A stretch of DNA of 64,000 nucleotides, from NCBI GenBank assembly GCA_964603675.1, contig CAZRVS010000006.1:19587-83586 (forward strand). Reading direction: 5' to 3'. The position numbers were made by a program, and so were the translations under genes. Positions 36,384 to 45,540 of the stretch are shown here, piece by piece; within the stretch, counting starts at the first letter, position 1, and each line of letters begins with the position of its first letter. Under the pieces are notes generated by a model. The model was not told where the DNA came from. It made no database searches and saw nothing but the letters and a program-made list of their open reading frames with translations. Origin of the DNA: an uncultured Candidatus Bathyarchaeia archaeon (GTDB taxonomy: Archaea; Thermoproteota; Bathyarchaeia; Bathyarchaeales; Bathycorpusculaceae).

Positions 36384-38537
36384 CTAGTAGGCGCAGAACC
36401 AATAATCTCCGCGAAGAATATGAGGCGCTGCGTTCCAGAAGACGGCCACAAACACGTGTCCTGTGTTCACATATTTTTTCGGAATCGTTAGCGAACCGCC
36501 GCTAAAGTCCCAAACATTGTGAAGCATTCCTGGTTGGAAGTTGATCATCTTGCCAGTGCGTATATTGTAACGAACGCTTGGGTTTCTGTAGGGCTGAATT
36601 CCCGTGACATCTATGACTGCGCCTAGCCAGTTGTTCGGTTCGAGCCCTGTGGTTCTAGTCCAGCCTTCGCTTGTCCAACCATCTTCACCTGGTTCAACGT
36701 CATCAAAGAAGCCGATTTCTGGAATTTCAATGTCATCGATGTAAATTCCTTGTTCGTTGTATGCTCCGTCAGTCCAGTAGACGAAGTATAGGTCTATGTC
36801 GTGTCCAGCAAAAGCCGTTAGATCCATTTCTTCTTGATAGTATCCTGGGCTGAATCCTGTTAGGGCATACCATTTACCAGCAGAGTAGTAGTCCTTTGGC
36901 TCTCGCCCATCTGGTGTGTTCGGATTATCTTGTTCGTGAGGTAAGGTTGAAGTTGTTTCAAGTCCTTCAAGGGTCGTCCACTCGTCGACCGTCTTGTCGT
37001 ATACTTCCACATATGCATAGTCCCAATCCTGTTCAATTTCATAGAAAGTATAAAACATCAGAGTTGCGCCACCGATCGGAATCGAGAACGTTTGACCCAG
37101 TTTTCGCCAAGCCCAGTTGCCCATGCCTCCATACCAGTGATAATCTCCGCTGTAGGCCGATTGCCCAGATATGGCGTCCCCTTCGTAGAGGAAATTGACT
37201 TTTTTTCCTGCTGGAGTGAACCAGAATTCCCAATAGTTCACGGTGTAGGGTTGAACTGTCCCAGGCCACAGAGATGCTTGCCAACTGAATCCTCGATTGA
37301 ACTCCATACCGATCCACCAGTTCCAAAGGAAATATTGAATTGAATAACCCCACGTGTCAGTTGAAGGAATATCTAAACTGAAGTAGCCGTATTTGCCATT
37401 TCCGAGGGATGTATCGTCGATGTAGTTGGCGATGGCCCAGTTATGGAAGACTGTATCAAAAGTGATCGCGTATCCGAGAGAATCGAGTGTATCTTCAATT
37501 CCTTCAATGCCGTTGAGTGGGTTTTGCACAAGTTGTGAAATAAAGTTTGCTCCACCATAGTGTTCAGAGAGATATAGGGTGAACAGGTAGCTGGCTCCAT
37601 AGTCTTCTAGCCCGCCACCCCAGAAGGTCAGGGAAGTGAATGGGTGATAGGCTAAGTAATTTACAATATGGTCCTGTGGATGTCCGTAGCCGCATAGAAA
37701 TCCAGCGAAATCTGAACATCCTTCATTAATCCAGTCATCCTCATCAGAGTCTATATCGAAATGGATTAGATGCTGGAATTCATGTGCCACAACGCCCTCA
37801 TACAAATATGGACGGTACGCAGGGCCTCCCAATGGCGGATTCGGTCCTAATCGCCATGTCAACTCGTACGTGTCAATGTGAATAATGTTCGCATCGTTGA
37901 GTTGACTAACTGCTGACGAGAAGTATCCAGCAATGTAGAATTCTGCTGTCTCAGGAGACCAAAATATCTCATCTCTAATGTTAAAAATCAATATGTCTAT
38001 CTTTGTGTTGCCTGCCGGCCGCTCATTTGGCATGCCGAAGTAGGTGGTGTCAGTTGGATAGATTACCTCGTCAAATTGTTCCAGTATGTACGTCAGGTTT
38101 TCACGGGATATGATATCATGATATCCTTGCCAAAGCCAAGAGGTGCCAGTGTCACTCCAAGGGTAGAAGAAGTGGAAATTTCCTTCAGCATCTTCATAGT
38201 CCGCGACAACAGTTGCGTTTGTCAATGTGATTGAATCGTTCAGTCCAATCCATATTCTTCCATGTTCTCCTTCATACACCAACTCAAAATCTTGTGCATA
38301 TTCGATGCCGAGATAGTCGTCATCTACCATTATGGTCCAGGGGTTCCCAGTGTCTGGCTCCATATTTCCATATTTTAACAAATATGCTCTGTTGTCAATT
38401 TTCGATGTGCCACAAATCCAATCCAAATCTCTTGAAAACGACTGTTCAGTTTCTGCTTGCGCAACCTGAACGAACGCCAACGAAAAGCTTGCAACAAGCA
38501 CCGTAATAGCAACTATTGAAAATAGTTTTTTATTCAA
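36384..38537 (-). CDS. secreted zinc metalloprotease, M6/InhA-like
   Basis: Signal peptide, then VAHEFQHLIH (HExxH) followed by WINEGCSDF. Confidence 0.7.
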   Translation of the reverse strand: MNKKLFSIVAITVLVASFSLAFVQVAQAETEQSFSRDLDWICGTSKIDNRAYLLKYGNMEPDTGNPWTIMVDDDYLGIEYAQDFELVYEGEHGRIWIGLNDSITLTNATVVADYEDAEGNFHFFYPWSDTGTSWLWQGYHDIISRENLTYILEQFDEVIYPTDTTYFGMPNERPAGNTKIDILIFNIRDEIFWSPETAEFYIAGYFSSAVSQLNDANIIHIDTYELTWRLGPNPPLGGPAYRPYLYEGVVAHEFQHLIHFDIDSDEDDWINEGCSDFAGFLCGYGHPQDHIVNYLAYHPFTSLTFWGGGLEDYGASYLFTLYLSEHYGGANFISQLVQNPLNGIEGIEDTLDSLGYAITFDTVFHNWAIANYIDDTSLGNGKYGYFSLDIPSTDTWGYSIQYFLWNWWIGMEFNRGFSWQASLWPGTVQPYTVNYWEFWFTPAGKKVNFLYEGDAISGQSAYSGDYHWYGGMGNWAWRKLGQTFSIPIGGATLMFYTFYEIEQDWDYAYVEVYDKTVDEWTTLEGLETTSTLPHEQDNPNTPDGREPKDYYSAGKWYALTGFSPGYYQEEMDLTAFAGHDIDLYFVYWTDGAYNEQGIYIDDIEIPEIGFFDDVEPGEDGWTSEGWTRTTGLEPNNWLGAVIDVTGIQPYRNPSVRYNIRTGKMINFQPGMLHNVWDFSGGSLTIPKKYVNTGHVFVAVFWNAAPHILRGDYWFCAY

Positions 38538-39598: not shown

Positions 39599-40843
39599 TT
39601 ACACAATGAAAGTCAGTGCTACACCTGTGATTAGAGGTATTGCAAGATTATCGTTCACTGGCAACGGCAGACACTCTATTATCATGGCTATCGCCGCGCC
39701 TATCATCGCACCTAGAGGGAATATGAAAAACAAACCTCCAAAAAAGGCAAAAAAGAATCCGATTGTTGACCCTACTAAAGTCTTACCTTTATTGAAAGGC
39801 AACGTTGGCCCCCGAAATAGGCCACCAAAAAATGACGCGGCGCTATCTCCAAGTGCAAAGATCGCGATAGCCGCGCTACTCGTCGGAGCAGGGAAGACCA
39901 GTAACGTAAGTAAGATGCCTAGGGCAAAAAATATAGGAGCAGTTGCGAATTCATGAAGTTCCGTTTGCGATACTGCGCGATGAGTTACTGAGGAAATTAA
40001 GGGCAAGTGTCTTTTTTCCATTCTTCCAAACTCGGATATCACGTACAAGATGGTAACGGTCAGGGTTATCAAAGCAAACGTGTAAAAGCCAATCAAGCTG
40101 GATACGGCCGGAACGAAAAAAGCAGAGGCGTGAACTGCCTCTCGAAAAATGTCATTTTTGGAGGGTGAACTTTCTTTCTTTGGCATTCCGCCCACTAAAG
40201 GCATTATATCCAGCAGCTTTCCCGTTACAACGTTATCTGCTCTAGTGCGTATCAAAAAGTCAGGGTTATACCCTATCTTCAGCGCTTTCCGAAGGAACAT
40301 TGATGCGTTGTTTCGATCATCAGCCACCACGATGCAGTCTTTTGGGGTTATCCCTTCCGTTTGCAAGATTCTTGATAGAACCTTGAACTTTCCATTATGC
40401 TTTATGACGTCACCCCAAATCTCACCTGTCAAAACGTCATTTTTAGTTTCTAGCTCAAGACCGAAAGCAAAGTCCGCTTTGAGTGTGCTGGCTAGATCCG
40501 TGACAACTACGCTTGGTAATCCAGAACTTATCAAAGCAGTTTTCCAGCCTTGAATCCTAAGTTTCTCAAAGACCCCTTGCGCGTCAGGCATCAAAGGAAC
40601 TTTTTTAAGAATTCGCACCAGCTCTTCGATTTTGATGCCCTTGAAAAGTTTGAAAACGTGTTTGAGAGCAGATTCTAATGAGATCAGGCCGAGTTCATAA
40701 AGAAAACCGTAAAGGATGATCCTTACCAATTGTGAAAAACCAAGAGATTTGCCGATTTCTAAAAAGTAGCGGTTCTTGGGTATTAGCACTCCTTCAACAT
40801 CGAAGATCACGAGTCTTGATTTGTTGTTTTGTAGCGTCGTCAA
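39599..40843 (-). CDS. fusion protein: HAD (SerB-like) phosphatase domain plus a polytopic dolichol/phytol kinase-like (CTP-transferase family) domain
   Basis: The N-terminus has LVIFDVEGVL (DxD/E HAD motif I) and VVADDRNN. The C-terminal ~190 aa are hydrophobic, with ALGDSAASFFGG ... KGKTLVGS. Confidence 0.65.
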   Translation of the reverse strand: MTTLQNNKSRLVIFDVEGVLIPKNRYFLEIGKSLGFSQLVRIILYGFLYELGLISLESALKHVFKLFKGIKIEELVRILKKVPLMPDAQGVFEKLRIQGWKTALISSGLPSVVVTDLASTLKADFAFGLELETKNDVLTGEIWGDVIKHNGKFKVLSRILQTEGITPKDCIVVADDRNNASMFLRKALKIGYNPDFLIRTRADNVVTGKLLDIMPLVGGMPKKESSPSKNDIFREAVHASAFFVPAVSSLIGFYTFALITLTVTILYVISEFGRMEKRHLPLISSVTHRAVSQTELHEFATAPIFFALGILLTLLVFPAPTSSAAIAIFALGDSAASFFGGLFRGPTLPFNKGKTLVGSTIGFFFAFFGGLFFIFPLGAMIGAAIAMIIECLPLPVNDNLAIPLITGVALTFIV

Positions 40844-40964: not shown

Positions 40965-42311
40965 TTACTGAGCTTGAGCGCAAATGTAATTCTTGTTTTG
41001 CAATTCTAGGGGGCATCCTCCGCCGCAGATTTGCAGTTGTGGGCAGTTCTTGCATTTCGGCTCCACATATCCCCTCTGTCTTATCTGTGTTGCAAGGGGA
41101 TGGTTCCATATTTTTTGCCAGTCATCCTTAAGGATGTTTCCGAGGCTTTCGAAGTAGCTTTGACAGGGGTAAACGTCGCCGTTTGGCCCGACACACATGT
41201 TTATCATTGCGGCTGTGCAGAATTTCACGCCCAAGCCGAGTTTAACAGGATCAAGACGGCAATATTGAGTTGGCGTGTACCATAGAAACTTTAACTCGAG
41301 TTCGTTGGCTTTGTCGCGGATCTTGGGCAAAAGTTCGTTTAGCCTTTCCAATGGCATAGCGAATTCTTCGCTTATGGCGCTTGCCTTTCCAGAGTAGATT
41401 AGGCTGTTGCATCCAAAAGCTGCAATGTCGAGCTCTTTCAGGAAATCTATGGTTTCCAAAAAGTCGGGAGCGTTGTATTTGCTGAGGGTTGTGTTCGTGG
41501 TTACGTATATTTGCGTTTTAACAGCGTTTTTTATTCCGGCCACGCTTTCCTTCCAGTTTCCTTTAGCGCCAGTCATGAAGTCGTGAACCTTGGGCTTATG
41601 GGACTCCAAGGTTACTTGAACAAAGTCCAGTCCAGCTTTTTCCAAAGTTTCAACATACGCTTTGTCCTTTAGTCTTCTGCCGTTTGTGACGAGGCCGGTG
41701 ACCATGCCCTTGTTCTGCGCGTAAAGCAACAGTTCTGGCAGGTCCTCGCGTAAAGTGGGTTCGCCCCCAGTAAAGGTTAAGATGAAGATACCGATCTGGC
41801 TTAGAGTGTTTATCACTTCTTTCCATTGCGCCGCAGTTAGCTCTGGTGTCTCGTGAGGTCCGCCAGAGTAGCAGTGAATGCAGTTGTTTTGGCATCTAAA
41901 AGTGAGCGCCATGTCCATGCGCAATGGTGCTGAAAGCTGTTGGCTGAAGGGCTCAACGCTCTTTACGTCGAGGAAGGATATGGGACAAACCTTCTCAGTT
42001 TGGGCCAGCGTGCCAATCGTGTAAACGAGTTTCTCATAGTCTTCCTTTGCTTTCTCCGGGCCTACCCTGTACATGCGATGGATCTTTTTCAAGACCGCGT
42101 CTTCAGGCATTCCCTGCATGAAATAGTAGGCATAGGCCGTTGCCGTTTCATTAAGATGAAGAACAGTGTTAGCATTGATTACTATGATTCCCAACCCGCC
42201 TGCTTCAACGCGGAGCTGAAGCGCCAAACCTGCAAATTCATCCTTTCCCCTATAGGTATAACGTCCAATGGGAATTTCGGGCGGACGCAAAATCTTCCTA
42301 AAGAAGCTCAT
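40965..42311 (-). CDS. radical SAM/SPASM domain peptide-maturase-like enzyme with an N-terminal PqqD/RRE-like domain
   Basis: CQNNCIHC (CxxxCxxC), GGEPTL, and the C-terminal CTAAMINMCVGPNGDVYPCQ ... CKNCPQLQICGGGCP (SPASM). The N-terminal VLHLNETATAYAYYFMQGMPEDAVLKKIHRMYRVGPEKAKEDYEKLV resembles PqqD. ATG 42311 lies 2 nt after the upstream stop, with GGAGGTG 11 nt upstream. Confidence 0.88.
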   Translation of the reverse strand: MSFFRKILRPPEIPIGRYTYRGKDEFAGLALQLRVEAGGLGIIVINANTVLHLNETATAYAYYFMQGMPEDAVLKKIHRMYRVGPEKAKEDYEKLVYTIGTLAQTEKVCPISFLDVKSVEPFSQQLSAPLRMDMALTFRCQNNCIHCYSGGPHETPELTAAQWKEVINTLSQIGIFILTFTGGEPTLREDLPELLLYAQNKGMVTGLVTNGRRLKDKAYVETLEKAGLDFVQVTLESHKPKVHDFMTGAKGNWKESVAGIKNAVKTQIYVTTNTTLSKYNAPDFLETIDFLKELDIAAFGCNSLIYSGKASAISEEFAMPLERLNELLPKIRDKANELELKFLWYTPTQYCRLDPVKLGLGVKFCTAAMINMCVGPNGDVYPCQSYFESLGNILKDDWQKIWNHPLATQIRQRGYVEPKCKNCPQLQICGGGCPLELQNKNYICAQAQ

Positions 42312-42313
42312 TT

Positions 42314-43939
42314 TCAGCCTACACCTCCGCCTGCACAAGCGCAAGCACATGATACACAAGCACACGCGCAAGCGCATGCTGCGCATGCACAAACGCAACT
42401 TGCATCGTGACGTGCTGGTTCTGATGATGCCTTGGCTGCGGGCGCTGGCAGGATTGCGTTGGCGAACTTTTCCAGATTGGCCACGATGTTGTTCGAAGTT
42501 TTTTCCACGGCAGTTGCAATGTTGTTTGCAAAGTCAGCGCCTGGAACTGTCGGCGGCTTAGCTGATTGGGCGGGCGTCTCCACGTTTGGCTTGTACGTAG
42601 GATTGGGGTGATAATGTTGATAACTGTACCAGTACCAGAACCAAAAGGGACTAGGCTCGAAGGCTCTGTCGCGAAATGCAGTTTGTGTGCGGGATTGATA
42701 GTTTGGATCAAGCAAAAGCCATAACAGTTGCTCATCATAAGCTTTTGAAGCTAATTCAGGCGTCCCAGCCTGTTCCACTTGTTCCCATGCCTTAGCCGCA
42801 ATCTTCCTGTAGTAGTCTACAGTGTCACGTCTGCAGTATCCCCGCAGTTTTTGTTCCACAGTATCTCTTAGAAACATTACTGTTTTGGCTAGCTTTTCCT
42901 CGTCAAGGGTCCCGTCGTTTTTTATTGCGTCGAGAAAGTCGATTTCATAGTATCTAAGCTGCGTTTCTTCAGTTCCAGTTTTTTTCTGAAAAGATGGCAT
43001 AATCTTCAATTTGAGAGCGGGGTTTGTGGATTCGACCCATACGGCCCTTTTCTGTAAAAGGCTGTAAAGCATCTCTGTAACCAATTGCGTTGGTTTCATG
43101 TCTAACAGGTAAGATGCTTCCACCGCCGTCAAACCACGACTTATTCCCAAAGTTTCCATGCTGACCTTAGGCGTCAAATACGGTCGCTTGCGGACCGCAA
43201 CAACCCCGATGCCAACTATAACCACGAACATTCCGATTATCAAAAAGGCAGGCCAGTACCGTTGCAAAAAGACAAGTGCACCAGAAGGCGGCTCGTATTT
43301 CTGCACATAACCTTCTGGAAAAGAAATTCCCACAGGGTATTGCATATCTGGAACAAGACTGTCTTTCTGCCAGTAAACTACCAGTCTCCCATCTTCTACC
43401 GATGTGTTGTTCCAGAATACTTCAGTTGTTTTCACCATTTCTTGAGTAACGTTGGGCGGCAAAACAATGGAAATGCGAAGATCGGAGACTGGAACAGGCC
43501 ACCAAACTGGAATGAATAGCATTCCGTCGTTGCCTGGATTTTTCTCATCCGGCACCACCATGCCTGCAACGTTAGTGATAAGTGTGAACCAGATGGTTTG
43601 TCCAGCTTCTAAGGGTGTGCTGAGGCTAACGTTCGCCCTGTAATTGTCTCCGCTTGACGCGTCTGTAGCTACTAAGCTGTTGCCATACTGGTCTTTGGCT
43701 TCGCCTATGGTGAAGTCGCGCACAGGTTGACCTACGTAAACGAAGTTTATGTTTTTGCCAGAATCAAGCCTAAGTGTAATGTTGTAGAAGAGGTCTATTG
43801 ATCTGTTCTCGTTTATCCATATTTTCACCCATTGATGATCGATGTAATACACTCTTTCTTGTGCTGAGGCAACACTTGCAAGCATTGCAAAAATGAATAT
43901 TACGGATAATGCAATTAGTGGAAGACGCCTATTCACCAT
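42314..43939 (-). CDS. DUF2207-like membrane protein with a C-terminal Cys-Ala repeat tail
   Basis: A signal peptide and a ~200-aa ectodomain are followed by a TM helix (WPAFLIIGMFVVIVGIGVVAV) and a ~290-aa predicted cytoplasmic region ending CVCACAACACACACVSCACACAGGGVG. Confidence 0.75.
   Translation of the reverse strand: MVNRRLPLIALSVIFIFAMLASVASAQERVYYIDHQWVKIWINENRSIDLFYNITLRLDSGKNINFVYVGQPVRDFTIGEAKDQYGNSLVATDASSGDNYRANVSLSTPLEAGQTIWFTLITNVAGMVVPDEKNPGNDGMLFIPVWWPVPVSDLRISIVLPPNVTQEMVKTTEVFWNNTSVEDGRLVVYWQKDSLVPDMQYPVGISFPEGYVQKYEPPSGALVFLQRYWPAFLIIGMFVVIVGIGVVAVRKRPYLTPKVSMETLGISRGLTAVEASYLLDMKPTQLVTEMLYSLLQKRAVWVESTNPALKLKIMPSFQKKTGTEETQLRYYEIDFLDAIKNDGTLDEEKLAKTVMFLRDTVEQKLRGYCRRDTVDYYRKIAAKAWEQVEQAGTPELASKAYDEQLLWLLLDPNYQSRTQTAFRDRAFEPSPFWFWYWYSYQHYHPNPTYKPNVETPAQSAKPPTVPGADFANNIATAVEKTSNNIVANLEKFANAILPAPAAKASSEPARHDASCVCACAACACACACVSCACACAGGGVG
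42332..42397 (-). repeat. coding region for the (Cys-Ala)n tail, 10 Cys in 22 residues
   Basis: The codons are heterogeneous (TGC/TGT; GCA/GCT/GCG), so the repeat is maintained at the protein level and is not a DNA microsatellite. The tail is a local GC-rich island. Confidence 0.8.
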
Positions 43940-44271
43940 TTCGGTTCCTCAGCTACCTCAAAAGTCTGTCCACAATAAGGACAAGTGGCGTATGGCACGC
44001 CCGAAACAATTTTGATTTGGTCAGCGTTAACCGAGGCTGAACAGTTCGGGCATTTGAGCGCCACTGCCTTCATCTGCCCAGAAACTTCCAATCTTTGAAC
44101 TATCGTCTTCGGCTTTCGGGTTATATAATAGGCTATTCCGAAACCAACAATGAACAACATGCCCGCAACAATAAGCCTTGTAAGTTCGTAAACCGACGCA
44201 AGAGCAAAGATTATACCGAAAAAGAAAAGAACTGCAATCGCGATTGCACCCAACACTGTTTTGAGACTCAT
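43933..44271 (-). CDS. membrane protein with a C-terminal zinc ribbon
   Basis: Two TM helices followed by CPNCSASV ... CPYCGQTF. Its stop overlaps the start of the next gene (ATGGTGA). Confidence 0.6.
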   Translation of the reverse strand: MSLKTVLGAIAIAVLFFFGIIFALASVYELTRLIVAGMLFIVGFGIAYYITRKPKTIVQRLEVSGQMKAVALKCPNCSASVNADQIKIVSGVPYATCPYCGQTFEVAEEPKW

Positions 44272-44445
44272 AAATTATTTGATGTACTTCCTCCAAATTT
44301 AATTTTGCCCTTCATCTTACTAGTCAATTTACCATTCTTTTGCTGCTTGCTTAAAATATTTAGCCAGTGACCGTATCGCAAAAAACTATGGAAAAATACT
44401 GCACGCTTCGAAGTGAGTGTGGATGCTGAAATCTGGCTTTGAAAG

Positions 44446-45540
44446 TCACGTTTTCTCAGCTTGCTTTCTTGGGTGCATTGTAGCATACGTGGCAGTTATG
44501 GCAAGTAAGGTGAGTGCTGCTCCCGAGATTGCAACTAAAACCAGTAGGGCTTCCGCCACGTTACCGATTAGCGCACCATCAGGCAACGCGCCTTTCCAAG
44601 TGATCATCACATCCGAAGTTAGCTCGCTTACGTCACCTTCGTATGTCAAGCCATATAACCAAGCACCAGTCTTCATCAGTTCTCCCAGCCTTAGGTCTAT
44701 TTTGGAGATCTCGCTGTTCGAAAGCCAAGTGCTCAACACGCCTTCTTCACCGGAAGTATGATACGTTGTCAGTCGAAGTGGATAGTATTCGTAACTTGAC
44801 TGACTAATGTTAGTTTTAGTGAGAAGGAAGAGGTTTATGTTTGTGTTTCCACCCAAGGGGCTGGTTATTGCCATAGGATAGTAGAGAAAGCTTGTATTGA
44901 ACCAGTAGAGTATGGGCTCAACGCTTTTTTGCTCTGCAGAAACGGTTATTATGTCCAGAACGTAGTATCGGAATCCCCTCGCCATGTATTCTTGAACCAC
45001 TGGCTCAAAGTTCCGAAGAGAAACCTCTTGGGTAATGTTGTTATTTTTCAGAAAACTTTTCATCCAATCCACAAGCTCTGACGAATCACTAGCCATTACG
45101 ATTGTGATGTCGTGCGAGCCAATCTTCTCATGGAAGACAATTTGTGGAGCTTCAATTGCTCCACCTCGACCCATAAAATTGTCCTTGTATGTCTGGCGTA
45201 GCTTTTCATTGAGAATCTCCTGAAGTATTTCGAACGATTTGAAACTCGCAAGCTCCACTCTGCTGGGGTTTGACGGCAAAGGAAGTATTTCCACAACAAA
45301 AGTTTCGCCAGTTGAAAATACGTCGGTGGAAAGAATCAGTATTTCCTCTTTCCCATCCCAAGCGATGATTGCTTTCTGTCCTGGCTCATATATCGAAATA
45401 TCCGTGCTTACGGGGATCAGCCCCCTGTCAGCCTTGACAACTGAGATAGTGGCCGTTAGAAAAATTAGAACTGAGATCAGAAACATTATTTTTGATGTTG
45501 TCTTCAAATAGACCCCAAATAGAATTTGAAGTTGTTCCAT
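44446..45540 (-). CDS. DUF2330-like exported protein with a C-terminal membrane anchor
   Basis: N-terminal signal anchor, then ISIYEPGQKAIIAWDGKEEILILSTD ... VVEILPLPSNP (DUF2330-like onset) and a C-terminal TM helix. Confidence 0.55.
   Translation of the reverse strand: MEQLQILFGVYLKTTSKIMFLISVLIFLTATISVVKADRGLIPVSTDISIYEPGQKAIIAWDGKEEILILSTDVFSTGETFVVEILPLPSNPSRVELASFKSFEILQEILNEKLRQTYKDNFMGRGGAIEAPQIVFHEKIGSHDITIVMASDSSELVDWMKSFLKNNNITQEVSLRNFEPVVQEYMARGFRYYVLDIITVSAEQKSVEPILYWFNTSFLYYPMAITSPLGGNTNINLFLLTKTNISQSSYEYYPLRLTTYHTSGEEGVLSTWLSNSEISKIDLRLGELMKTGAWLYGLTYEGDVSELTSDVMITWKGALPDGALIGNVAEALLVLVAISGAALTLLAITATYATMHPRKQAEKT

Follow-up and report, generated by a model that had tools for sequence, protein, structure and literature searches.

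The locus described here lies in a window of 64,000 nucleotides (nt), the whole stretch of DNA that was analysed, on contig CAZRVS010000006.1 of an uncultured Candidatus Bathyarchaeia archaeon. Four successive genes on the minus strand encode a DUF2330 protein of 364 amino acids (aa), a 112-aa membrane protein with a zinc ribbon, a 541-aa membrane protein and a radical S-adenosylmethionine (rSAM) enzyme. These four open reading frames (ORFs; Table 1) had been proposed in an initial annotation, and the ORF listing bore out their coordinates. The two close junctions were also as described: the stop codon of the ribbon gene and the start codon of the 541-aa gene share the sequence ATGGTGA (43933-43939), and 2 nt separate the stop codon of the latter gene (42314-42316) from the ATG of the rSAM gene at 42311 (TGA-aa-ATG). 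There is indeed a gap between the DUF2330 gene and the ribbon gene, but it measures 174 nt from the DUF2330 stop to the ribbon ATG, and not 175 nt. Judged from the overlaps, the ribbon, 541-aa and rSAM genes may be co-translated. The most striking feature of the interval had not been mentioned before: the 541-aa protein, hereafter the tail protein, ends in a tail that consists very largely of cysteine and alanine. We conclude that the functional unit consists of three genes, encoding the ribbon protein, the tail protein and an rSAM/SPASM enzyme.

Conservation of the three-gene cassette

Scanning one genome per GTDB species for the tail motif yielded 80 loci, to which a look-up of exact proteins added 2, and the window proteins were searched against all ORFs of the resulting 82 loci. 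An rSAM orthologue lies beside the tail-protein gene in 71 of these 82 genome loci, and a ribbon homologue, detected with a hidden Markov model, is located upstream of the tail-protein gene in 68. The usual gene order, present in most of the 82 loci, is ribbon, tail protein, rSAM; seven bacterial loci are ordered ribbon, rSAM, (paralogue), tail protein. Counted over all loci, the tail-protein gene precedes the rSAM gene in 106 of 113 adjacent pairs, and the rSAM gene comes before the tail-protein gene in 7.

Because loci found through the tail motif could make this argument circular, a second ascertainment was based on the ribbon motif alone. A degenerate DNA pattern for CP[YF]C-x3-[YF][QE]-x-x-EEPKW retrieved 120 loci from metagenome contigs. 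A tail-protein or rSAM gene is next to the ribbon gene in every one of the 107 metagenome loci that have at least 300 nt downstream (107/107), and in those with at least 3.6 kb downstream the tail protein is present in 41 of 41 and the rSAM orthologue in 40 of 41. Measured from the tail-protein stop, the first position of the rSAM model lies at a median of about -2.5 nt, and within +/-60 nt in 86% of cases. Furthermore, the pairwise-distance matrices of the three proteins, compared over 87 loci, correlate with r values of 0.92, 0.82 and 0.82, as expected for a co-inherited cassette.

The linkage spans more than a dozen phylum-level groups of Archaea and Bacteria. According to the locus labels, the archaeal loci belong to Bathyarchaeia, Thermoproteota, Heimdall- and Hodarchaeota, Methanomassiliicoccales and one metagenome-assembled genome (MAG) of Halobacteria. 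The bacterial loci include many Anaerolineae, among them the cultured Ornatilinea apprima, as well as Planctomycetota, Myxococcota, Acidobacteriota, Aminicenantes, Hydrogenedentes and Fermentibacterota. The genes flanking the cassette vary by lineage. In Thermoproteota, a Halobacteria MAG and Heimdallarchaeota, no ribbon gene is found nearby and the pair of tail-protein and rSAM genes is kept.

The tail, the membrane proteins and the enzyme

The tail protein has at least 1779 homologues, and an exhaustive search among representatives of clusters at 50% identity yielded 554 relatives. Its tail is nearly identical in the best 120 of these at least 1779 homologues (Bathyarchaeota, ~66-74% identity). 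The last 16 residues, CACAC[A/V][G/S]CACACAGGG, are nearly invariant, and the usual form in distant relatives, as judged from the 554 cluster representatives, is ...GGGG-CACACACAGCACACAGGGR. In an alignment of 54 diverse sequences, which has a mean column identity of 31%, the invariant columns include C526, C531, A532, C533, A534, C535, A536, G538 and G539. The tail codons of 66 loci, on the other hand, use TGT and TGC in a ratio of ~50:50 and employ all four Ala codons. Since the codons vary while the peptide is fixed, selection acts on the peptide and not on a DNA repeat, and a microsatellite artefact of the (TGCGCA)n type was ruled out because the codons are heterogeneous, and differ between species, whereas the peptide does not change. 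In one fragment from the databases, P0369, the tail appears to be shifted into the alternative frame that is described below for the rSAM ORF.

The tail is disordered in the AlphaFold2 (AF2) model, with predicted local distance difference test (pLDDT) values of 33-40, and residues 515-533 have a mean Kyte-Doolittle hydropathy of 2.25. We considered whether it could be a C-terminal transmembrane (TM) helix, which is unlikely because AF2 predicts no helix at these positions and the pLDDT is low, and because the hydrophobic run comprises only ~16-22 residues of Cys, Ala and Val. The segment VPGADFANNIATAVEKTSNNIVANLEKFANAIL, which sits 18-50 residues ahead of the Cys core, is modelled as helices at residues 467-485 and 489-496 with pLDDT values of 82-88. 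Within it, a PGxxFA...F...V motif and A471 are conserved in two alignments of the tail protein.

The AF2 model of the complete tail protein has an overall pLDDT of 82.5. A signal peptide or TM helix at residues 2-24 (hydropathy, AF2) is followed by a beta-sandwich ectodomain that occupies residues 30-208 of the model with a pLDDT of ~95 and by a TM helix that AF2 places at residues 221-245. Since RKRPY comes directly after this helix, the positive-inside rule puts the C-terminal half of the protein, and with it the tail, in the cytoplasm. There, AF2 predicts a winged-helix-like plus helical domain at residues 272-437, which on its own had no significant Foldseek match in the PDB (best E 1.2). 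The ectodomain together with the TM helix did match chains of the oligosaccharyltransferase (OST) complex (8pn9_E, 6s7o_E, 6ezn_A and 6c26_1; E 1.9e-10 to 8e-8), which we take to be Ost1/ribophorin I, and the ectodomain superimposes on the N-domain of M1 aminopeptidases/LTA4H with a root-mean-square deviation of ~4.5 A over ~210 columns. The tail protein shares with Ost1/ribophorin I the topology of an ecto beta-sandwich, a single TM helix and cytoplasmic helices. It differs from Ost1 and from LTA4H in its cytoplasmic domain, for which the PDB offers no counterpart, and the cassette differs from the OST system in that no STT3/AglB gene is among its recurrent neighbour gene clusters. The Ribophorin_I model (PF04597) was unmatched by the window protein, by the 54 relatives and by members from Asgard archaea, Halobacteria and Methanomassiliicoccales. 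The modelled similarity of the ectodomain to Ost1/ribophorin I is one of fold only. Members of the tail-protein family occur in the Asgard genomes L066, L070, L078 and L079, without support for ribophorin at the sequence level. In five metagenome loci (L112, L137, L159, L161 and L195) a tandem pair of tail-protein genes precedes a single rSAM gene.

In the initial annotation the tail protein was assigned to DUF2207, a label that domain searches did not uphold. The window protein has no match to DUF2207 or to any other relevant Pfam family even at E<=10, and none in NCBIfam. Among the 54 diverse relatives, 2 match the N-terminal model (PF09972; best 5.5e-5, weak) and 4 match DUF2207_C (PF20990) weakly (best 1.2e-4), all below threshold, and an Asgard member scores 13 bits against the C-domain model, whose cut-off is 33. 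Six distant archaeal members likewise stay below threshold, and membership in DUF2207 was therefore rejected, although a few close homologues are named "DUF2207 domain-containing protein" in NCBI records. What is shared with DUF2207 proteins is the layout, according to AF2 and hydropathy: a signal peptide, a beta-rich ectodomain, a TM helix, a cytoplasmic region and a low-complexity C-terminal tail. In view of the weak or missing domain matches, the label describes an architectural resemblance, and the tail protein is at best a remote relative of DUF2207. The only functional study of a DUF2207 protein that we found is one on SMU.243 of S. mutans and deals with stress tolerance and biofilm (PMC10457818).

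The ribbon protein was correctly described as having two hydrophobic segments followed by CPNC...CPYC. Hydropathy places the two N-terminal TM helices at residues 6-24 and 33-51, with the ribbon in the cytoplasm and the protein ending in EEPKW. Its two CxxC pairs, ~20 residues apart, are those of a generic zinc ribbon. Searches of Pfam and NCBIfam gave sub-threshold zinc-ribbon matches only, and no specific family. Among its homologues G65, C74, C77, G91, C97, C100, E108 and W112 are invariant, P110 is nearly so, and the Lys of EEPKW is variable, with T, Q and L occurring in its place.

The third gene encodes an enzyme with clear Pfam matches to the radical SAM domain (PF04055, E 4e-25) and to SPASM of the TIGR04085 type (PF13186, E 2.6e-11). 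Its homologues in Bathyarchaeia are 77-97% identical. The three cysteines of the CX3CX2C motif are invariant in 72 of 72 orthologues, and each of the seven SPASM cysteines, which would bind two auxiliary 4Fe-4S clusters, is kept in 70-72 of 72. A recognition element of the kind found in pathways for peptides that are ribosomally synthesised and then modified post-translationally (RiPPs), or RRE, is recognisable at the level of the family: a profile of the first 135 residues matches the lasso-peptide RRE TfuB1 (E 1.1e-7), and also TbiB1 and PqqD, and Pfam PqqD (PF05402) is matched by 21 of 27 orthologue N-termini (best 5.7e-9). The rSAM fold, the SPASM cysteines and the PqqD-like N-terminus thus make up the RRE-rSAM-SPASM architecture of peptide maturases. 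The closest PDB structures are those of SkfB (3e-19), SuiB (1.5e-16) and PqqE (5e-11). The enzyme reaches no NCBIfam cut-off; its best scores, in bits against the cut-off, are for NirJ2 (139.9/500), AhbC (129/650), AhbD (120.5/500), PqqE (116/381) and MftC (110.5/265), with WgkB also among the top sub-cut-off scores. The models for sactipeptide and ranthipeptide maturases are not reached either (AlbA NF012164, 74/850; SkfB TIGR04403, 81/300; StsB NF045574, 71/625). Since no segment scores as transmembrane by hydropathy, the enzyme is taken to be cytoplasmic, that is, on the same side of the membrane as the tail. Its start codon is the ATG at 42311, as all 120 homologues listed align over the full query and most have 447-448 aa. 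The tail codons read MRLCMRSMRLRVCLCIMCLRLCRRRC in the +1 frame, so that the rSAM ORF seems to be 29 codons longer and to start from a TTG at 42398; the resulting 477-aa ORF was rejected as an artefact, since it translates the Cys-Ala codons in another frame and the conserved start is the ATG.

Neighbouring genes and variants of the cassette

Table 1. Positions in the window of the cassette genes, their main features and the neighbouring DUF2330 gene.
Feature	Position	Strand	Basis and remarks
Ribbon gene (gene 1)	43933..44271	-	ORF and hydropathy; 112 aa
Tail-protein gene (gene 2)	42314..43939	-	ORF; 541 aa, bitopic membrane protein
Ectodomain of the tail protein, aa 27-208	43316..43861	-	AF2 beta-sandwich
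TM helix of the tail protein, aa 221-249, RKRPY next	43193..43279	-	Hydropathy, AF2, translation
Conserved helical segment VPGADFANNIATAVEKTSNNIVANLEKFANAIL, aa 465-497	42449..42547	-	AF2 helices and conservation
Cys-Ala tail CVCACAACACACACVSCACACAGGGVG, aa 515-541, 10 Cys	42317..42397	-	Translation
rSAM/SPASM gene (gene 3)	40965..42311	-	448 aa; PF04055 and PF13186
PqqD-like RRE of the rSAM enzyme, aa 29-100	42012..42227	-	Family profile
CQNNCIHC, CX3CX2C radical-SAM motif (C140, C144, C147)	41871..41894	-	Translation, orthologue alignment
SPASM region (C351, C365, C383, C420, C423, C429, C433)	41013..41261	-	PF13186, orthologue alignment
Spacer upstream of the cassette, 174 nt	44272..44445	-	Sequence only
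DUF2330 gene, neighbour outside the cassette	44446..45540	-	PF10092

The DUF2330 family assignment itself was confirmed by the Pfam scan: PF10092 matches residues 49-251 with E 3e-10 and 40.2 bits, above the gathering cut-off of 24.7. By hydropathy, this exported protein begins with a hydrophobic segment and is anchored C-terminally through residues 331-349. Its true start may be the second Met, at residue 19 (MFLISVL...; MFLISVLIFLTATISVVKA|DRG; minus strand, 45484-45540), which yields a clean signal peptide, residues 1-18 being hydrophilic.

It had been claimed that the DUF2330 gene forms one envelope unit with the other three. The genes are co-directional and 174 nt apart, and a second, independent assembly of this strain shows them in the same arrangement. 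However, a DUF2330 homologue is found in 0 of the 82 genome loci and in 1 of the 120 metagenome loci, where it lies 5.7 kb from the ribbon gene, so that it is adjacent in none, and the order is kept only for the ribbon, tail-protein and rSAM trio. At locus L002, which belongs to a 68%-identical relative, the ribbon gene comes straight after AlaRS and no DUF2330 gene stands between them, and the upstream synteny of TiaS, FUN14 and AlaRS is common to this relative and the window. The spacer, for its part, contains a T5 run (44392-44396), a T6 run (44380-44385), an AT-rich box TAAATATTTTAA (44351-44362) and a GGAGG sequence (44290-44294). Transcription in archaea can terminate at oligo-T runs and start from TATA boxes, and the oligo-T runs and AT-rich box would fit a separate transcript for DUF2330; the spacer probably combines the terminator of the DUF2330 gene with the promoter of the cassette. 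A four-gene operon was rejected on account of L002 and of the counts over the genome and metagenome loci, a four-gene functional unit is hardly credible, and the DUF2330 gene is a lineage-specific, unrelated neighbour outside the unit.

On the other side of the cassette, 121 nt downstream of the rSAM gene, a 414-aa ORF (39599-40843, minus strand) encodes a HAD-IB/SerB-like phosphatase fused to a C-terminal domain with at least 4 hydrophobic segments, whose motif LGDSAASFFGG...KGKTLVGS recalls, by eye, enzymes of the CdsA/dolichol-kinase type. It was considered as a fifth cassette member and rejected, being kept only in close Bathyarchaeia (L003, L006, L007 and L064) and 3 metagenome loci. The ORF at 36384-38537 (minus strand), further downstream, has no relation to the cassette; it encodes a secreted protein of 717 aa that combines an InhA-like MAM domain (PF20773, E 6e-22) with a region resembling HExxH metalloproteases.

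In Ornatilinea apprima (L040:9135-10295) and 37 other loci, mostly of Anaerolineae, the rSAM gene is followed by a second rSAM-like gene, whose product retains some of the rSAM fold behind a PqqD-like N-terminus, with no CX3CX2C motif and only 1-6 cysteines. Its sequence suggests a dead paralogue, devoid of catalytic activity, which might serve as a scaffold. A gene for a class I SAM methyltransferase (PF08241, with weak similarity to DVU_1556) is present at L040:10282-11052 and in 53 other loci; its position downstream of the dead paralogue gives rise to a five-gene version of the cassette at loci of the Anaerolineae type. Two loci, labelled Nitrospirales (L034) and Nanoarchaeia (L011), contain Bathyarchaeia-like cassettes (34-41% identity; rSAM 510-539 bits), which are either mis-binned contigs or the result of recent transfer.

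Proposed maturation of the Cys-Ala tail

We consider it fairly likely that the rSAM enzyme of this three-gene cassette matures the Cys-Ala tail, probably by thioether cross-linking. The tail resembles a substrate because its Cys and Ala residues are invariant across Archaea and Bacteria, because it is disordered and preceded by a conserved helix, and because it is located on the cytoplasmic side. That the tail of a membrane protein might be matured by the adjacent rSAM enzyme had already been suggested in the initial annotation, and the core of that idea draws strong support from the comparative data on linkage, on the invariant cytoplasmic tail and on the RRE; the inclusion of DUF2330 and the DUF2207 label fall away. 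The PqqD-like N-terminal domain of the enzyme would dock on the helical segment of residues 465-497, which may have a leader-like role, and the radical-SAM/SPASM core would then modify the disordered Cys-Ala core (residues 515-541) while it is still joined to the membrane protein. The ribbon protein would probably keep either the tail or its enzyme close to the membrane. As in RiPP pathways, the substrate would be encoded in cis, and the product would remain part of the membrane protein. By analogy with sactipeptides and ranthipeptides, the chemistry would most likely consist of cross-links from Cys sulfur to carbon; we favour this because the characterised RRE-bearing SPASM enzymes that act on Cys-rich cores are mostly thioether synthases. 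Such cross-links would make the floppy tail a rigid module, or would create a protein-derived cofactor or a metal site.

Several observations weigh against this proposal. The argument for the tail as the substrate is one of guilt by association. The RRE match of the window enzyme itself is weak (E 0.079), the RRE call being based on the family profile, and the best NCBIfam scores of the enzyme, all far below the cut-offs, are those of haem-pathway enzymes (NirJ2, AhbC and AhbD) and not of thioether synthases. At three loci (L027, L042 and L056) the tail protein occurs without an rSAM gene within 4-6 kb. In the rare members P0275 and P0298 the tail is internal, with ~90 residues following it, so that the Cys-Ala block need not be at the extreme C-terminus. 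Finally, CxCxC runs are classic metal-binding motifs, typical of metallothioneins.

This last point leads to another possible explanation, namely that the tail is an unmodified, metallothionein-like metal or Fe-S site and that the enzyme, recruited by the membrane proteins, acts on lipids, small molecules or some other protein. The likeness to metallothioneins lies in the Cys-x-Cys-x-Cys runs, with 7-10 thiols in ~20 residues, and a tail with so many thiols that AF2 models as unstructured without a ligand would suit such a site; the top NCBIfam similarities to tetrapyrrole enzymes, and a weak resemblance to GDGT-MAS and Tes, two rSAM enzymes that modify lipids, would suit an enzyme that works on something else. 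We nevertheless regard this explanation as unlikely. The enzyme carries a predicted peptide-binding RRE, whereas we know of no RRE in small-molecule rSAM enzymes; the tail codons abut the start codon of the enzyme in most loci; and Ala (or Val) alone fills the alternate positions, whereas the non-ligand positions of metal sites are usually tolerant of change. Three features, moreover, set the tail apart from metallothioneins: it forms part of a large membrane protein, its periodicity with Ala is strict, and its link to an rSAM enzyme is obligate. It is also conceivable, if rather improbable, that the tail is the substrate of a different chemistry: epimerisation of every other residue, leading to a D,L-alternating hydrophobic segment that adopts a beta-helix of the gramicidin or polytheonamide type, or Cys oxidation, with formylglycine as one conceivable product. 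The rSAM epimerases YydG and PoyD and the Cys-oxidising anSME are known enzymes, the strict two-residue periodicity of small residues and the high hydrophobicity of the tail are in line with this possibility, and the extra genes of Anaerolineae, for the Cys-less rSAM paralogue and the methyltransferase, suggest a chemistry of more than one step. However, membership in the YydG, PoyD or anSME families is not among the matches listed, and the prevalence of thioether synthases among characterised RRE-SPASM enzymes with Cys-rich cores speaks for cross-linking instead.

The real substrate could also be the C-terminus of the ribbon protein (...EEPKW-COOH), as with rSAM enzymes that modify C-termini or Lys-Trp pairs, in which case the tail protein would be otherwise employed. 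E108 and W112 are invariant at the very C-terminus and P110 is nearly so; SuiB, which makes a Lys-Trp cross-link, is the second-best PDB match; and in seven loci the rSAM gene comes immediately after the ribbon gene. The KxxxW-maturase model TIGR04080 aligns over nearly the full enzyme, including the N-terminal domain, but with 75 bits against a cut-off of 500. Given also that the Lys itself is not conserved, and that loci of Thermoproteota, Halobacteria and Heimdallarchaeota keep the rSAM and tail-protein genes with no ribbon gene nearby, we consider this alternative very doubtful.

If the enzyme does mature the Cys-Ala tail, the cassette can be compared with several known systems. The maturases of sactipeptides and ranthipeptides (AlbA, SkfB, StsB, CteB and PapB) have the same order of N-terminal RRE, CX3CX2C core and SPASM domain with two auxiliary clusters, their Cys-rich core is likewise encoded immediately upstream, and SkfB is the best PDB match. 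On the other hand, the role of "precursor" in the cassette falls to the C-terminal end of a 541-aa membrane protein instead of a small secreted peptide, its core is made up of Cys, Ala, Val, Ser and Gly alone, the cassette has no conserved protease or exporter gene, the enzyme scores far below the family cut-offs (AlbA, SkfB and StsB), and the cassette is conserved across both domains in the manner of a housekeeping gene set. QhpD introduces thioether cross-links into QhpC, and anSME converts Cys or Ser into formylglycine in sulfatases. As is proposed for the cassette, the cysteines that such a SPASM enzyme modifies belong to a protein that is functional afterwards, and the gene of the enzyme is linked to that of its target; the target in the cassette, however, would be the repetitive and disordered tail that ends a membrane protein in which no catalytic domain can be recognised, and the likeness put forward here is not one of sequence membership. 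With PqqE/PqqD and the mycofactocin proteins MftC/MftB the cassette shares a PqqD-type domain combined with a SPASM rSAM enzyme, and the modification of residues near a C-terminus. It differs from them in that enzyme and RRE are fused, Glu/Tyr and Val-Tyr are missing from the core, the partner genes of the PQQ and mycofactocin pathways are absent, and the scores remain below the cut-offs, also for the Ornatilinea orthologue (PqqE 123 bits and MftC 85 bits; cut-offs 381 and 265).

We found no earlier description of the cassette in the full-text literature, where a query with the tail motif mostly matched DNA primers, and no paper combining DUF2207 and "radical SAM". One candidate description, PMC9431491, proved to have unrelated content. 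NCBIfam 20.0 has no model for the tail or ribbon protein and no equivalog for the enzyme, as judged with the proteins of the window and of O. apprima, and Pfam has no family that matches the window tail protein or its 54 relatives. On our best reading, what is new here is that the tail of a conserved membrane protein would undergo an rSAM/SPASM maturation of the RiPP type. To our knowledge, nearly all known products of rSAM/SPASM enzymes that carry a recognition domain are small secreted peptides and peptide-derived cofactors, whereas here the same machinery appears to be hard-wired to the tail that a large and widely conserved membrane protein has in the cytoplasm. It is possible, and we suggest this only tentatively, that the cassette is an ancient system for the maturation of protein tails in Archaea, including Asgard, and Bacteria, in which a (Cys-Ala)n tail becomes a new cross-linked or cofactor-like structure on an Ost1/ribophorin-I-like membrane protein, so that a RiPP-type pathway would serve a housekeeping membrane function and not a secreted natural product. 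For enzymologists, the tail would be a defined and very unusual substrate with a pure Cys/Ala core, and Ornatilinea apprima is a cultured carrier of the cassette. The link to an rSAM/SPASM enzyme would provide the first functional handle on a family of at least 554 clusters (50% identity) that has no Pfam or NCBIfam model, and the similarity in fold of its ectodomain to eukaryotic Ost1/ribophorin I may be a second, independent lead.

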